Positions 32,749 to 38,849 of a DNA stretch of 64,000 nucleotides are shown here, in pieces. The DNA lies in the NCBI GenBank assembly GCA_965224085.1, contig CBDCYI010000005.1, forward strand, positions 1,632,001-1,696,000, given 5' to 3'. Origin of the DNA: Candidatus Marinacidobacterales bacterium (GTDB lineage Bacteria > Acidobacteriota > Vicinamibacteria > Marinacidobacterales > SMYC01). The number at the start of each line of letters is the position of its first letter. The first letter of the stretch is position 1. Made by a program: the position numbers and the translations under genes. The notes below the pieces were generated by a model that was not told the DNA's origin, made no database searches, and saw only the letters and a list, made by a program, of their open reading frames with translations.

Positions 32749-33585
32749 ATGATGAGATTCGCGATTGCCCTTTCGTTGTTTGTCGCCGCGCCGGCTTCGG
32801 CGCAGCTGATAGCCGCCAAGGACCACACGGTCGCCATGGGTCACCACCACCTCATGGTCGAGGACGTCCAAGAAAACGTCGCGTTCTGGAAGTCGCTCGG
32901 CGGTGAGTCCGTCGCTTTCGGCACTTACGATGTGATCCGGTTTCCGAACGTTCTCATCTTTCTTCGGGAGCAAAAGCCTACAGGGGGCACGAACGGATCC
33001 GTCGTGAACCACGTGGGCCTTCAATTCCAAGAGCTCAGGCCGCTCGTGAAGCGCTTGAAGGGCGCCGGGACGCTCATCATTACCGAGGAAGTCGCAGGCG
33101 CGTCCTTCGACGTCGATGCTGACGATCTCGCCTGGAACGAGGGCGCCGGGGCTCATCTCGCGTTCGCGCGTGCGCCGAACGGGACACGCGTCGAGCTCTA
33201 CGAGAACAAGGAGCTCGGGCGGCCGGTGGCGAACCACCACATTCATTTCAACAATCCGGAGGTCGACGCGATGAAAGCGTGGTACGTCTCGAAGCTCGGC
33301 GCGAAACCGGGCCAGCGCTCCGGAATGGAAGCGGCCGACGTCGGCGGCGTGAACTTGACGTTCTCACCCGCGGACGAACAGCCCGCCGGCACCAAAGGGC
33401 GCGCTCTCGATCATATCGGCTTCGAGGTCGACGGGCTCGAGGCGCTCTGCAAGAAGCTCGAAGCGGAAGGCATCACGTTCGACCGCCCCTATCAAAAGAT
33501 CCCGGAGCTCGGCGTTGCCGTCGCCTTTTTCACGGATCCATGGGGAACGTATATCGAGCTGACCGAAGGACTCGACGAGTTATAA
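32749..33585 (+). CDS. Exported two-domain VOC/glyoxalase family protein
   Basis: Signal peptide; GHHHL, NHVG, VELYE, HHIH, DHIGF, DPWGTYIELTE. Confidence 0.88.
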   Translation: MMRFAIALSLFVAAPASAQLIAAKDHTVAMGHHHLMVEDVQENVAFWKSLGGESVAFGTYDVIRFPNVLIFLREQKPTGGTNGSVVNHVGLQFQELRPLVKRLKGAGTLIITEEVAGASFDVDADDLAWNEGAGAHLAFARAPNGTRVELYENKELGRPVANHHIHFNNPEVDAMKAWYVSKLGAKPGQRSGMEAADVGGVNLTFSPADEQPAGTKGRALDHIGFEVDGLEALCKKLEAEGITFDRPYQKIPELGVAVAFFTDPWGTYIELTEGLDEL

Positions 33586-34653
33586 AAGGCCGTGGAGCGC
33601 GCGCCTGAGAGCTAGATCGAGTTTTTCCACCAATTCGTCGAGGTGACGCTCTTCGACGTTGTACGGTGGTGCCAGAAGGACGTGGTCGCCACTTTCGCCG
33701 TTCGCCGTCCCGCCTCCTGGGTAGCAGAGTAGACCCCCGCGGAGAGCCTCGTGCCGGACGCGCGCATGCAGCTTTTGCTCTGGATCGAACGGAGCTTTCG
33801 TCGCACGATCGCGGACGAGCTCCAACGCCCAGAGTAAACCGCGCCCGCGCAACTCGCCCACGTGGGAGTGGTCACCGAAGGTAGCGTTCAATCGATCGGC
33901 GAGCCCCTCTCCCATGCGTCGCACGTTCGTCAGTAGGTGTTCGTTGAGGATGGCGCGCACGACGGCCAATCCTGCCGCGCAAGCGACCGCGTGCCCCATG
34001 TAGGTCTGGCCGTGACGAAGTTTTCCAGAGCCTTGCCGCACCGCTTCGACGACGGATTCGGAAACGATCACGGCGCCGATGGGTTGATAACCCGCGCCTA
34101 GCCCTTTGGCGATCGTGACGATGTCGGGCACGACGCCTTCCTGCTCGAACGCATAGAACGTACCCGTCCGACCCATCCCGCACAGAACCTCGTCGAGAAT
34201 GAGGAGGATCCCGTGGCGATCGCAGATGGAAGCTATCTCGCGAAAGTAGCCCGGCGCGGGAATGACCGCGCCTGTGGTCGCGCCGACGATGGTCTCGGCA
34301 ACGAACGCCGCGACCGTATGCGGCCCCGCACTCACGATGGCGCGCTCGAGCTCCAGAGCCGCCCGTTTTCCATACTGTTCCGGCGTTTCGTCTTCGCGCT
34401 GGTGGCGATACGGATAACAGGGAGGGATGAGCTCTGTTTCAACAAGCATTGGCTCGTACGGGCCGCGGCGCAGTACGTGGCCGCTGACTCCGAGTGCTCC
34501 GAGCGTATTGCCGTGATAGCTCGCGCGCCGCGCGATGAATCGTGTGCGCTCGGGCTCGCCTTTCTCGACGAAGTACTGGCGCGCCAGTTTCAATGCGGCC
34601 TCGACAGCCGCGGAGCCGCTCGAAACGAAAAGAGCGTGCGTCATGGACGCGGG
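33580..34653 (-). pseudogene. Class III PLP aminotransferase, 5'-truncated
   Basis: SYHGNTLG, LILDEVLCGMGRTG, PDIVTIAKGLG, RGRGL; N-terminal part replaced by CRTAC1 sequence. Confidence 0.85.
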
Positions 34654-35440
34654 TCTCGAAGCTCTCGCCCTTGCCGCCCGGCCAACGGACCTCGATACCC
34701 CTGAGCGTCTCGGCGCTTCCCAGGCCGAAGCCGAGCCGCGCGTCATTATGCGAGAGATAGCTGCCGCCGCTCCGCACCTCACGAAGCTTCCCGTCCACGG
34801 TGACACGCGCGCCGATCGCGTCGCGATTCCCACCACGTCCGACCAGGCGTAGCCACAGCCAGTGGTTGCCGCTATCGTTGTCGTTTCTCAAAAGGCTCGG
34901 CGGTGCGTCGAGGTTCACGATGAAGATGTCGTCGTCGCTATCGTCGTCATAGTCACCGAAAGCGACGCCGCGGCTCGAGGTCTCGCGCAGAAGGGGGCCG
35001 CCGACCTCCGCGGTGGCGTCGCGGAAGCGTCCCTCTTCGTTCAAGAAAAGCTGCTTTTTCTGGAGCCACGAAGTTCCAATAGGGGCTTCATCCACTTCGG
35101 GATAGACGTGGCCATTGGCGACGAAGAGATCGCGCCAGCCGTTGTTGTCCAGATCGACGAGCCCGACGCCCCAGCCGAGAGAAGCGATCGACGACACACC
35201 GAGACCAGCGAGGTAGGTCACGTCGATGAAGATATCCTCGGCGTTGCCCCGGTAAAGCGTATTGGTCTCGTGGGAGAAGTTGGTCACGACGACGTCGAGC
35301 CAGGAGGCGCCAACGCCGTCCCGGTTCGAGCGCACGCCCACGAGCCGGATCCCGACCCAGTGATTTTCGCGTCCCATCTCGTTCCGCGCGAGGTTGGGCT
35401 TGTCGTTATTGTTCATCAAGAGCAGATCGACATCGCCGTC
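34654..35440 (-). pseudogene. Chimera of two CRTAC1/ASPIC-UnbV (FG-GAP) gene fragments
   Basis: The segment DxDLL...N..NHW..RL.G...NRD..GA occurs twice; junction near 35304; SGGSYLS, FGLG, VRWPGG. Confidence 0.8.
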
Positions 35441-35442
35441 AA

Positions 35443-35547
35443 TGCATCACGGCGCCTGCTTCGGAGCGAAGGTCCGAATACTCGATCCAGGACGATCCCA
35501 AGCGGCTCGTCGACATCAGCAATGCTTATGACGAGGTGCTGCGCTAG
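35443..35547 (+). pseudogene. Probable 3' remnant of the gene formerly upstream of the ATP-grasp gene
   Basis: Open frame CITAPASERRSEYSIQDDPKRLVDISNAYDEVLR* ending 11 nt before the next ATG. Confidence 0.35.
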
Positions 35548-35558
35548 ACTTTCGTGAG

Positions 35559-36827
35559 ATGCCCCCTCGTGTTTTATTGTTGTTGCCGACCTCGACTTAT
35601 CGAACACACGACTTCATGGCGGCGGCAGAGCGACGGGGAGTGCTCGTCGTGGTGGCTTCGGAAGAGCCGAGCACGATGGAGCGTTTCGCGGGCGAGTCGC
35701 TTCTTACGTTGGACTTCGGCGACCCGCAAGGATCTGCGCAGAAGGTGGCTGCGTTTCACGAGAAGCACCCTCTGAGAGCGGCGATTGCTGTAGACGAAGA
35801 GACCGCTGTCGTCGCTTCGGTCATTGCCGAACGTCTCGGTTTTCCCGGCAACGCCCCCGAAGCCGCCGCGCGGGCGCGTTTGAAACATGTCATGCGGGAA
35901 GCGCTCGCGGCTGCAGGCGTTCCGGCACCAGCGCATCGCGTCTTCACGACGGATGACGACCCACGCGCCGCCGCACGCGAAGTGCGGTACCCGGCCGTCA
36001 TTAAGCCCGTCTTTTTGTCGGGAAGCCGCGGAGTGCAGCGGGTGGATGACGAGGACGCTTTCGTGCGCGCATTGGAATGGACCCGCGAGCTGCTCGCGCG
36101 GCCGGAGCTCGCGAAACGCGGCGGCGAGCACGCGAAAACGATTCTGGTCGAGGACTTCGTACCCGGCTCCGAAGTCGCTCTCGAAGCGATTTTGACTGAA
36201 GGCGAACTCACACCGCTCGCGCTCTTCGATAAACCCGATCCGCTGGACGGACCGTATTTCGAGGAAACGATCTACGTCACTCCGTCCCGCTTACCCGCCG
36301 AGACCCAAGCGAAGATCGCGAACGTGACGGCTCAGGCCGCGGCCGCGCTCGATCTGCGTCAAGGACCCATCCACGCAGAGCTGAGACTGCCGCCGGGGCC
36401 ATTGGACCCATTCGGAAAGAGCCCGTCCGTTCTCGAGATCGCGGGCCGCTCAATCGGCGGGCTGTGCTCGCGCACTCTCCGCTTCGGATTGGGACTCTCT
36501 TTGGAAGAGCTGATCCTGAAGCACGCACTCGGCCAAGACGTGACGACCGATAAACGCGAATCGAAAGCCGTCGGCGTAATGATGATCCCAATCCCAAAAC
36601 AAGGCGAGTTCATCAAGCTCGAAGGCCTAGAAGACGCCAAAGCCGTAGAGGGAATCGAGGAGGTGACGATAACCGTCCACCAAGGCGCGAATCTGATCCC
36701 GCTCCCCGAAGGCTCGACCTACCTAGGCTTCATCTTCGCAAGAGCCGAAACCCCCAAGGAAGCTGAACAAGCCCTAAGAAAGGCCCACGAAGCGCTAACG
36801 TTCCAAATCGAGACCAGGAGCAGGTAG
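35559..36827 (+). CDS. ATP-grasp domain ligase (L-amino-acid-ligase-like)
   Basis: KHVMR, YPAVIKP, SGSRGV, LVEDFVPGSE, FDKPDPLDGPYFEET, HAELR, LEIAGR. Confidence 0.9.
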   Translation: MPPRVLLLLPTSTYRTHDFMAAAERRGVLVVVASEEPSTMERFAGESLLTLDFGDPQGSAQKVAAFHEKHPLRAAIAVDEETAVVASVIAERLGFPGNAPEAAARARLKHVMREALAAAGVPAPAHRVFTTDDDPRAAAREVRYPAVIKPVFLSGSRGVQRVDDEDAFVRALEWTRELLARPELAKRGGEHAKTILVEDFVPGSEVALEAILTEGELTPLALFDKPDPLDGPYFEETIYVTPSRLPAETQAKIANVTAQAAAALDLRQGPIHAELRLPPGPLDPFGKSPSVLEIAGRSIGGLCSRTLRFGLGLSLEELILKHALGQDVTTDKRESKAVGVMMIPIPKQGEFIKLEGLEDAKAVEGIEEVTITVHQGANLIPLPEGSTYLGFIFARAETPKEAEQALRKAHEALTFQIETRSR

Positions 36828-37418
36828 CTATTTGGAAGGCGCGTAATAAGGATTGCGCCCCGAAGCGTGATCCGTCGTATCCATGATCGCGCCGATACTC
36901 GGGATCGCCTGCCGGATCGATTTCTCGACACCTTGCTTCAAGGTGACACCGGCCATGCCGCAACCCTGACACCCGCCTCCCATCTTGATGAAGAGCTCGT
37001 TCTTGCGCACGTCGATGAGCTCGACCCAACCGCCATGAGACGCCACCGCCGGGTTGATTTCTTGGTCGAGAACGGCCTGGACCTTCTTCTTTATCTCGTC
37101 CGGATCCGGTAGGGACTCGAGTGCTTTCGTCGAGACGGCGGCCTCGCCGCTTTGAAGATGGGAGCGGATAGAGGCGCCGACTTGCTTCGCGATGGGCATC
37201 CAATCGTCGCCCGCGGAGGCGGAGACGGTCACGACGCTGTCTTGGATCAGAACGGACGAAACGCCGCCGATAGCGAAGATTTTCTCAGCAAGAGGCGAGC
37301 CTGCCGCCTGCGCCGCGCCGCCGAAATACATGGAGCTGTCGGGATAGACCGGCCGGTCCACGCGAAAGTTGCAGGTTTGATTGTCTTTGGGCTCTGCTGT
37401 TATGCGAATCTCATCCAT
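36828..37418 (-). CDS. NifU/NfuA-family Fe-S carrier (Nfu_N + NifU_C)
   Basis: INPAVASHGG, GGCQGCG, TLKQGVE, DTTDHASGRNPYY. Confidence 0.9.
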   Translation of the reverse strand: MDEIRITAEPKDNQTCNFRVDRPVYPDSSMYFGGAAQAAGSPLAEKIFAIGGVSSVLIQDSVVTVSASAGDDWMPIAKQVGASIRSHLQSGEAAVSTKALESLPDPDEIKKKVQAVLDQEINPAVASHGGWVELIDVRKNELFIKMGGGCQGCGMAGVTLKQGVEKSIRQAIPSIGAIMDTTDHASGRNPYYAPSK

Positions 37419-37445
37419 GTCGTCTCCTGTCCTAGGACCGCATTA

Positions 37446-38849
37446 TTATAACGCGTGCCGCCGCTGCCTTCGTTCGAGAGGACCAAACTGGTCCTCGGTG
37501 GGCTCCGCTCAACAAAACCACGCCTCGGTGAGCCGCGGCGCCTTCGCGCTGGCAAGAAACGCGGCTTTCTGGCGGAGACCCACGCGCCCCGCCAAATTTC
37601 GGAAAATCTCTCCGTTCGGATGCCTTTTGCGAACACTGCTTTCGACCGCTGCTTCCACGTCTTTTTGGAGCTCGTCCATCGCCGGATCCGGATGCGACCA
37701 GCGATAAGTGAGCCCCGCTTTGTCGAGCTCACCGAGAAAAGGCTGCAAGCTCGTATTTTCGAGAAGGAGAGAGCCTGGCGGTATCAGAAGCCGTAATGTC
37801 AGCTGGATGGGGTCGACGTGCTCGACGAGATCCTCTTCGAGCACAAAGCGAAAAAGCTCCCGGTAGTCCTCGCGCGTGGTCCATGGCGTGAACGCGACGA
37901 ACGTGGGCCTCGGCGCGATGCCGGCCTCACGCACGGCACGTAACGCTACGCGGGCGTCGCGGCTCGAGTGGCCTTTGTCGAGCTCGGCGAGAACGCGATC
38001 GCTCAACGACTCCACCGCAGAAACGATGAACGCGCACCCCAAAGCGGCGAGCTCCGGCAACCGCTCGCGGTGCTTCAGCAGGTGCTCCACTTTCGCGGTG
38101 AAGTCGAAGGTGACGTCAGGATGTGCGCGATGAAGCGCGCGCGCCACCTCGAACGCATGGCCTGGGCCATTCAGAAAGTCGGGATCGGCGAAGTTGATAT
38201 GCCTGGCGCCAAGTGCAACGAGCTGGTCGATGTCTTCGAGTACGGTCGCCTTCGGCACAATGAAAAAGCGCCCCCCGTAAACGGGCGGAATAGGGCAGTG
38301 CCGGCACGAGTGAAGGCAACCGCGACTCGTCTCGACCGTTCCCACTCTTCGATGTGAGCCGTCGGGAAGCTCGAGGTGAACATATTGCTCGAGCGGCGGC
38401 AGCCCTTCTCGATGGGGCACCGGATAATCGAGCCTGTCGAGCACGGGTGGTGGCGCTTTGGTCCCGAGAGCCCCGAGGAGCCCAAACAGCTGGACACGCT
38501 CCACGAGCGCGTTTTCGCACTCGCCACTAAAAACGCTGTCAACGCCGGCGGACATCAACATCTCTGCGTTCAGGGTCGCGTAAAGGCCGAAGAAGCAGAG
38601 ATGAGCGCCTGGGTTCACCTCCTGGACCCGTTCCGCCACACGCATGCCCAGCCGCAATGCCGTGTGCATCGGAACGGACACTGCGATGAAATCCGCGCGC
38701 GCGATGGCGCTCTCGTCGAGCGATTCAACGCCCAGATCGAGGCTCTCGGCCGAATATCCAGCTCTATTCAAATAGGCGAGGGGGTTTGCAAGCCCGAGAG
38801 GCTGGCGCCCGAGCTCGTAGCAAGAGATCAGTAAGACGTTCGGACGCAT
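37446..38849 (-). CDS. CUAEP-tail B12-binding radical SAM selenoprotein (Sec at UGA 37509-37511)
   Basis: LISCYELGRQP, CxxxCxxC (CLHSCRHC), DPDFLNGP; tail WF-C-[UGA]-AEPTEDQF...HAL-TAA; SECIS-like hairpin. Confidence 0.9.
37478..37496 (-). promoter_or_regulatory. Bacterial SECIS element
   Basis: GAGGACCA-GUU-UGGUCCUC perfect 8-bp stem with G-first loop, 12 nt 3' of the UGA. Confidence 0.85.

Follow-up and report, generated by a model that had tools for sequence, protein, structure and literature searches.

The radical S-adenosylmethionine (SAM) enzyme ArsL moves SAM's 3-amino-3-carboxypropyl (ACP) moiety onto arsenic held on its Cys tail. The ArsL studies describe the cleavage of SAM to 5′-methylthioadenosine (MTA) and an ACP species, and a Cys tail to which As(III) binds and which SAM cleavage does not require (10.1101/2024.02.01.577332; 10.64898/2026.04.29.721666), and it was proposed in one of them that an electrophilic Fe-ACP species is attacked by the bound atom (10.64898/2026.04.29.721666). 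Another radical SAM family, NF040546, was named as uncharacterised in the preprint of Haft and Gwadz, which links CU motifs to heavy-metal handling (10.1101/2022.07.06.499078). The locus described here lies in a window (the whole stretch of DNA analysed, 64,000 nucleotides) of contig CBDCYI010000005.1 from Candidatus Marinacidobacterales bacterium, and comprises genes for a member of this family with a Cys-selenocysteine-Ala-Glu-Pro tail (the CUAEP enzyme), for an Nfu-type iron-sulfur (Fe-S) carrier and for an ATP-grasp ligase, together termed the module. The selenoprotein family is already catalogued; what is new is a lysine that tracks the ligase on Nfu and on the unrelated protein YggX. The ligase and lysine-tailed carrier partners of NF040546 were not found in the literature searched on the family, a search that was not aimed at the lysine tail.

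The combination of a ligase with a radical SAM enzyme on a protein lysine is described for lipoylation (LipB/LplA with LipA), and the β-lysylation of EF-P (EpmA with EpmB) follows the same logic. Neither the ligases nor the radical SAM subfamily of these systems are homologous to those of the module, the target of which would be an Fe-S or iron carrier and the transferred group an ACP-derived amino acid. L-amino-acid ligases, the type to which the ATP-grasp enzyme belongs, are described as joining free amino acids, and BL00235 is listed among them as making Met-Gly and Met-Met (PMC6920838). BL00235 (PDB 3VOT) is the nearest solved relative of the window ligase both by sequence (E 3e-36; 26% identity) and by fold (TM-score 0.82); it differs in acting on free amino acids, whereas the amine donor proposed for the window ligase is a protein lysine.

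The ligase and the lysine tail of Nfu and YggX

The CUAEP enzyme is accompanied by a single clade of ATP-grasp enzymes of the L-amino-acid-ligase type. Among 301 genomes sampled evenly from Acidobacteriota, the phylum of the window, enzyme and ligase occurred together in 49 genomes, while the enzyme alone was found in 1, the ligase alone in 6 and neither in 245. The two genes were adjacent in 29 of these pairs, apart on one contig in 5 and on different contigs in 15. Of 39 further genomes that have the enzyme, mostly from other phyla, 35 also hold the ligase. A protein re-search in five of the six ligase-only genomes returned only distant radical SAM matches; one ligase-only genome, G073, is unpublished, and nothing rests on it but the ligase-only count and a single one of the 30 Nfu matches given below. 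Among the 79 homologous loci collected, 78 of which were complete at the enzyme tail, an ATP-grasp ligase was found in 57, Nfu in 52, SaoD/DsrE in 29, DUF169 in 18 and YggX in 5; these genes were arranged in many different orders and orientations. A plasmid search for the ligase at E 1e-30 retrieved none. In the window, nfu starts 27 nt past the radical SAM stop and is convergent with the ligase gene, their stop codons abutting; Arg297 and Cys303 of the ligase are invariant.

The ligase in turn travels with a small residue followed by Lys at the C-terminus of an Fe-S or iron helper, which is Nfu in some lineages and elsewhere the unrelated YggX. The window Nfu is a protein of Nfu_N and NifU domains, which scored 88.9 bits with the NfuA equivalog TIGR03341, under the cut-off of 269. 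Its terminal K196 was invariant in the 22 aligned module-linked Nfu (22/22), the C-termini of which read Pro-aromatic-aromatic-x-x-small-Lys, and all 60 Nfu encoded beside the module had a Lys four (54) or five (6) places past the aromatic pair; as a baseline, 266 of 3433 long frames in the window genome carry Lys within the last two places. With a profile built from module-linked proteins, Nfu of the module type was found in 71 of the 301 genomes, where 30 matches reached the final Lys, all in ligase-bearing genomes, and 41 were shorter, none of them in a ligase-bearing genome. The ends of 52 of these 71 were read directly, and Lys stood at the fixed place in 29/29 ligase-bearing vs 0/23 ligase-less genomes. 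In a tree of 51 Nfu built without the tail, the Lys state changed 4 times (4-6 in bootstraps), at least 2 changes being forced.

The other 25 ligase-bearing genomes had no module-type Nfu, and in all of them (25/25) YggX ended in aromatic-x-Pro-x-x-x-Lys, with Ala, Ser or Thr before the Lys in 23. Moreover, YggX was without the lysine motif in the 7 of 7 genomes whose Nfu carries it. These YggX tails were counted by eye, and 62 of 119 YggX genes were read. Among 80 metagenome Nfu loci, 77 of them with complete ends, ligase or enzyme was found in the locus for 39 of 56 Lys-tailed Nfu vs 0 of 21 without Lys, 9 of these 21 loci being at least 5 kb long. Where enzyme and ligase lie apart, the carrier gene is mostly found with the ligase (among 14 regions, 9 have Nfu and 2 have YggX; of 13 more, 10 have Nfu), and the lysine tail was kept in the five ligase-only genomes that were read, while the one enzyme-only genome has neither the Nfu nor the YggX tail. 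Further residues often follow the tail Lys, which points to the side-chain amine rather than the terminal carboxyl. The lysine tail is likely to be a functional site for the ligase, and the comparative data for the ligase point to a protein lysine as its probable substrate rather than two free amino acids.

Several observations pull in the other direction. The sampled genomes are kin, so that the counts overstate independence, and the Nfu profile derives from the module-linked proteins themselves, 52 of the 71 ends having been read directly. One ligase-less Nfu has a Lys one place later, and of the YggX read from 30 ligase-less genomes, 5 have a Lys at the same place (preceded by a small residue in 2) and 11 have one at any position of the tail. 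No module was seen in 17 of the 56 Lys-tailed metagenome Nfu loci, of which 4 are at least 5 kb long. In addition, six genomes keep the ligase and the Nfu lysine without the enzyme, two of them (G088 and G314) being nearly closed assemblies; therefore, the ligase can do without the enzyme or use another source.

The coordinates of the features are collected in Table 1. Two further results were not used in the argument: a complex prediction for ligase and Nfu scored 0.02 against a mark of 0.32, with no controls run, and was not used either way, and three RNA runs yielded only five contigs, all short and of low depth, that fall on nfu, on the ligase end and on the gene of the enzyme; they were not counted as evidence, DNA not being excluded. 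Apart from these, in three Chloroflexota loci (L053, L057, L061) the YggX encoded beside the enzyme carries a long Gly/Ala/Pro/Lys-rich extension with several repeats of a small residue followed by Lys.

Table 1. Position, strand and basis of the module features in the window
Feature	Position	Strand	Description and basis
CUAEP-tail radical SAM selenoprotein	37446..38849	-	467 aa; NF040546 match, Pfam domains, alignment, AlphaFold model
In-frame UGA, almost certainly read as selenocysteine (residue 447)	37509..37511	-	Cys/UGA in homologues, selABCD, run X6
Bacterial selenocysteine insertion sequence (SECIS)	37478..37496	-	8-bp stem, GUU loop, 20 nt UGA-to-loop; fold, covariation in UGA forms only, published rules
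Nfu/NfuA-like Fe-S carrier	36828..37418	-	196 aa, CxxC, terminal Lys196; Pfam Nfu_N and NifU
Codon of Nfu Lys196, proposed ligase acceptor	36831..36833	-	Lys-ligase co-occurrence; acceptor role inferred
L-amino-acid-ligase-type ATP-grasp enzyme	35559..36827	+	422 aa; Pfam ATP-grasp_4, LAL_C2, ATPgrasp_N; BL00235 likeness; co-occurrence

The selenocysteine codon and its hairpin

The minus-strand frame of the enzyme runs from a likely ATG at 38849 to Trp-Phe-Cys, continues through TGA at 37511-37509 into 20 sense codons that start with Ala-Glu-Pro, and ends with TAA at 37448-37446. The preliminary description of this DNA had proposed a hidden selenocysteine (Sec) at this TGA, with a SECIS hairpin downstream, in a radical SAM family with a CUAEP or CCAEP tail, and each of these proposals was borne out. 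The TGA is not an assembly error, since the single contig obtained over 36950-38504 from run X6, which is possibly not independent of the assembly, has no differing letter at a depth of 26.5. Among the homologous loci, the in-frame UGA aligns with a Cys codon: 20 have TGA, 58 have Cys and 1 is cut off, and the tail continues with Ala/Ser-Glu-Pro in 78 of the 78 complete loci, none of them ending at Trp-Phe-Cys without it. The UGA is thus almost certainly read through as Sec, and the presence of selenium in the expressed protein is predicted. As a separate observation, runs X1, X2 and X6 hold a contig of another organism that matches only the Sec-codon region (window 37486-37520; 35 nt, 3 differences), and therefore a relative with the same tail is present in those samples.

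The search for the Sec machinery suggested in the preliminary description found selA (550 bits), selB (365), the tRNA-Sec gene selC (74) and selD (280) in the window genome, which is 95% complete, all of them above cut-off. In the search for selB, which covered 50 of the 79 homologue genomes and in which some matches span the N-terminal half only, the gene was above cut-off in 19 of 20 genomes with a UGA-type enzyme vs 12 of 30 with a Cys-type enzyme. In the phylum sample the enzyme gene was found in 50 of the 301 genomes, 46 of these 50 with one TGA within the match, and selA, checked by eye, was present in 50/50 enzyme-bearing genomes vs 229/301 overall.

The hairpin downstream of the UGA has a stem of 8 Watson-Crick pairs (37496-37489 with 37485-37478), a 3-nt GUU loop, a spacer of 12 nt from the UGA and a G at +21, with a minimum free energy (MFE) of -13.8 kcal/mol over the 40 nt from the UGA. 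The published bacterial SECIS rules, as quoted, call for a loop of 3-9 nt, a stem of 4-16 bp, a spacing of 16-37 nt, a G among the first two loop places and an MFE of at most -7.5 (PMC13188914), and the hairpin agrees with all four of the rules so quoted (loop of 3 nt with G first, stem of 8 bp, 20 nt, -13.8) (PMC13188914). The folding energy alone is weak evidence (z -1.51; equal stability in 15 of 200 shuffles). This genome has 3181 frames that end in TGA and span 250 codons or more; a looser hairpin rule was passed by 41 of them and the strict stem was found in 9, and with the GU loop in addition only this gene was left. It was the comparison of homologues that proved informative: in 40 distinct UGA-type tails the 7-bp register was paired in 0.907 of cells, against a shuffled mean of 0.712 and maximum of 0.771 (1000 shuffles), with several compensatory pair types, and sliding the register lowered the pairing to 0.31-0.57, whereas in 43 Cys-type tails it was 0.392 vs 0.41 when shuffled. 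The covariation confined to UGA forms puts the hairpin beyond chance. The loop G is no evidence by itself, because the Cys forms keep it too (36/43, compared with 40/40 UGA forms).

An alternative in which translation really ends at the UGA, and in which the hairpin is a chance fold or a terminator, could be argued from the unremarkable folding energy of the hairpin and from the many homologues that are listed in databases as ending at the UGA codon. This explanation is opposed by the conserved tail past the UGA, the Cys orthologues, the covariation restricted to UGA forms and the distribution of selB; moreover, the hairpin is not terminator-like, with neither a U-tract nor a match to a σ70-type promoter or a terminator at its position. 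Its probability is practically negligible.

Other observations concern the selenium genes of these organisms. The SelD of the window genome (G000:C5:1545162-1546073, L018) is fused to an N-terminal part that resembles pyridine-nucleotide oxidoreductases, 774 codons in all, and its motif has Cys, not Sec. In one lineage selD directly adjoins the ligase gene (L055:3191-4147, L159:10201-11163, G033 and G036), three of these four having a Cys-form enzyme. At G000:C4:113650-114342, an arsenite-methyltransferase-like gene (210 bits vs a cut-off of 263) has one in-frame TGA inside the match and is possibly another selenoprotein.

Kinship of the enzyme with ArsL

The enzyme is a full member of NF040546, matching the profile at 621.1 bits (cut-off 500) over positions 1-467 of 468, and the gene itself is in no way different from others of the family. 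It carries a CxxxCxxC motif (C178, C182, C185) and the Cys446-Sec447 pair, and C178, C182, C185 and C446 are invariant in 83 aligned sequences. The ArsL profile NF040542 gave 315.2 bits, under its cut-off of 450, while the remaining radical SAM models scored below 50 bits. Three plasmid-encoded proteins with an RCCLKC tail, the only ones of this type in the comparison and not including the characterised Burkholderia and Pseudomonas ArsL enzymes, showed 34-37% identity to the enzyme over about 420 aa. Their Cys pair aligns with the Cys-Sec pair, which in the CUAEP enzyme lies beyond an insertion of about 50 residues. Of the 89 columns conserved in the family, 56-65 were matched by the RCCLKC proteins, compared with 24-38 for four radical SAM controls of the B12-domain type, and 53 were identical in all three. 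For the cleavage of SAM to MTA and an ACP species these shared columns are suggestive only. No solved structure of ArsL or of the NF040546 family was found by sequence search, and the ESM Atlas returned only the same families.

The two enzymes thus share the two-domain layout, a C-terminal Cys-Cys or Cys-Sec pair and, in some clusters, ATP-grasp neighbours. They differ in that ArsL has a three-Cys arsenic-binding motif, whereas the CUAEP tail has only the Cys-Sec pair and no third Cys, and in that the ArsL clusters show an ars context and another ligase clade, whereas the CUAEP enzyme is found in an Fe-S/sulfur context, with Sec and the insertion before the tail. It had been suggested in the preliminary description, which overlooked the partner ligase and the adjoining lysine-tailed Nfu, that the tail may act on a cobalamin-binding enzyme as a mobile redox arm or as one carrying a metal or chalcogen. 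An arm that carries the substrate fits better than a purely redox one, because the equivalent Cys tail of ArsL binds the substrate atom and is dispensable for SAM cleavage. Pfam matched both Radical_SAM and the B12-binding domain, the latter (PF02310) above its cut-off (36.5 vs 32.1 bits); however, cobalamin binding by the enzyme is doubtful, because its nearest characterised relative, ArsL, and the top fold match of its AlphaFold model (mean predicted local distance difference test 95.3), AprD4, are reported as non-binders in a review covering AprD4 and ArsL homologues (PMC12931638).

The gene context of the module points to Fe-S and sulfur metabolism. In the Pfam scans of the flanks, which took in 274 of the 291 genes called around 34 loci and 79 of the 130 in another 20 regions, cysteine desulfurase-like proteins (4 loci), Mrp/NUBPL (3), aconitase (4), Rrf2 (2) and MoaA (3) were found near the module, together with SufBD, ErpA with YgfZ, NadA, lipoate genes and a disulfide isomerase. 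Arsenic genes were scarce: among the 79 loci, ArsR-like genes were found in 2, ArsB-like in 1, ArsP-like in 1 and ArsM-like in 3, and ArsC, ArsN1 and aquaporin in none. In contrast, all three ArsL-type clusters that were inspected have ars genes, along with an ATP-grasp gene, which belongs to a different clade (21-26% identity to the window ligase).

A proposed modification of Fe-S carriers and its alternatives

For the function of the module, a reaction in three steps was proposed. The enzyme, as ArsL, would cleave the Cγ-S bond of SAM, and the ACP group would move to a soft atom that the Cys-Sec pair holds; this atom would most likely be sulfur, because of the Fe-S/sulfur gene context, and the product a homocysteine-type amino acid, selenium or a metalloid also being possible. 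The ligase would then activate the carboxyl of this amino acid with ATP and link it as an amide to the ε-amine of the terminal lysine of the carrier, where the flexible amino-thiol arm may alter the binding or the hand-on of iron or Fe-S clusters. Covalent acylation of the carrier lysine is probable, and it is marginally favoured that the radical SAM enzyme produces the acyl donor by chemistry of the ArsL type. That the enzyme makes an ACP amino acid, probably with sulfur, and that the ligase joins it to the carrier lysine, falls just short of an even chance, and a dedicated post-translational system, in which a Sec-tailed ArsL-type enzyme and a ligase place a homocysteine-like (or seleno- or metalloid) amino acid on the lysine of Nfu or YggX, is put forward tentatively, as somewhat unlikely in this complete form.

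On the chemical side, this proposal has to be set against several points. The chemistry of all the steps is inferred, and a lysine may be conserved for docking instead of as an acceptor. The ligases of this type are described as joining free amino acids (PMC6920838). The ArsL tail has three Cys, where two residues are found here after an insertion of about 50, and 36 of the 89 conserved columns differ; the ArsL-type reaction, as opposed to 5′-deoxyadenosyl cleavage, is presumed from kinship. The assignment of sulfur is drawn from gene context only.

In one alternative, the module would serve a small-molecule pathway in which a methionine-like ACP amino acid is joined to a free amino acid as a dipeptide, the lysine of Nfu or YggX being a docking handle for the delivery of clusters or iron. 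L-amino-acid ligases are described as forming dipeptides, each of the three inspected plasmid clusters of the ArsL type has a transporter or permease along with its ATP-grasp gene, and docking has a precedent in NfuA, which is described as docking on lipoyl synthase and refilling its sulfur-donating cluster (PMC9585516). However, it is the ligase, for which no cluster to be loaded is known, that the lysine follows, and not the radical SAM enzyme; the lysine emerged on two proteins that are not related to each other; the module flanks show no conserved family of transporters or peptidases; and the ligases of the ArsL clusters belong to another clade. This pathway is considered unlikely. Somewhat less credible is the reverse order of events, in which the carrier lysine would first receive an ordinary amino acid (such as Met, Cys or homocysteine) from the ligase, and the tethered residue would be altered afterwards by the radical SAM enzyme, the Cys-Sec pair acting as a redox arm or as a sulfur/selenium shuttle. 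This order would account for the six genomes in which ligase and lysine tail persist without the enzyme, follows the logic described for lipoyl groups, where a ligase and a radical SAM enzyme act on a protein lysine, and suits the redox arm considered in the preliminary description; it is opposed by the closeness in sequence to ArsL, where the acceptor atom sits on the tail and the ACP amino acid is produced in free form.

An arsenic or other metalloid acceptor was also considered, where an ArsL-like carbon-metalloid bond would be formed (for example, with methylarsenite held on the two thiol/selenol groups) and an arsinothricin-like unit passed on by the ligase. In its favour, ArsL is the nearest characterised relative, its two-Cys variant is reported as the best catalyst with methylarsenate (PMC13598754), and CU motifs are tied to heavy-metal handling (Haft and Gwadz, 10.1101/2022.07.06.499078); yet ars genes, present in all three ArsL clusters inspected, are scarce in the 79 loci, and the window genome has no ArsM above cut-off, which leaves this acceptor improbable. 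A cobalamin-dependent methyltransferase, or another canonical 5′-deoxyadenosyl-radical enzyme with a tail of unrelated role, would agree with the Pfam B12-binding match and with OxsB, MgmA and TsrM, which are also among the top fold matches; it is very improbable in view of the B12-radical SAM equivalogs, which scored 18-49 bits vs 315 for ArsL, of AprD4 as the top fold match and of the reported lack of cobalamin binding in ArsL homologues (PMC12931638).

If the ligase acylates the lysine, Fe-S carriers would have a new kind of covalent modification, there would be a case of an L-amino-acid ligase acting on a protein, and the CUAEP enzyme would provide a second chemistry for the ArsL-type Cγ-S cleavage of SAM. 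If the dedicated system holds as a whole, it would amount to a new lysine-linked swinging-arm cofactor for Fe-S trafficking, spanning many uncultured lineages from soil, sediment and sponges. If lysine acylation fails, what remains is an ordinary member of a family that is known but uncharacterised. Meanwhile, the lysine tail names a candidate substrate for an orphan family that is present in 50 of the 301 sampled genomes of the phylum.

Other candidate roles and parts were tried and rejected. Selenium is probably not an obligatory substrate, because 12 Cys-type genomes, in incomplete assemblies, hold both enzyme and ligase without a selB or selD match, and an obligate selenophosphate substrate was rejected on the same count. 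A replacement for bacillithiol was rejected as no anticorrelation was seen (bshC in 30 of 50 enzyme-bearing vs 146 of 251 other genomes), and a role as the sole homocysteine route was rejected as MetY is above cut-off in the window genome. DsrE/SaoD (29/79) and DUF169 (18/79) were set aside as core parts, being lineage-bound; elsewhere in the window genome there was no DsrE match, and DUF169 matches reached only about 31-34%.

Some minor observations were made on the surrounding genes. A DUF169 gene appears at two contig ends with identical scores (G000:C9:8513-9133 and C5:2291876-2292496) and is probably an assembly duplicate. Only in loci from Planctomycetota (L031, L033, L035-L038 and L044) are enzyme and DUF169 followed by a MerT-like transporter gene and a pyridoxal-phosphate-dependent decarboxylase. 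The ArsL-type plasmid clusters of Priestia, Pantoea and Alicyclobacillus (L104, L105 and L106) combine an ATP-grasp gene, a gene for a small Cys-Cys-ended protein or of the CMD family, and ars genes, which hints at an arsinothricin-containing peptide; none was found in the literature searched on arsinothricin or ArsL with ATP-grasp. Finally, outside the module, at 33580-35557 of the window, a class-III aminotransferase frame overlaps by about 400 nt an ASPIC/UnbV-FG-GAP frame that looks partial or shifted.

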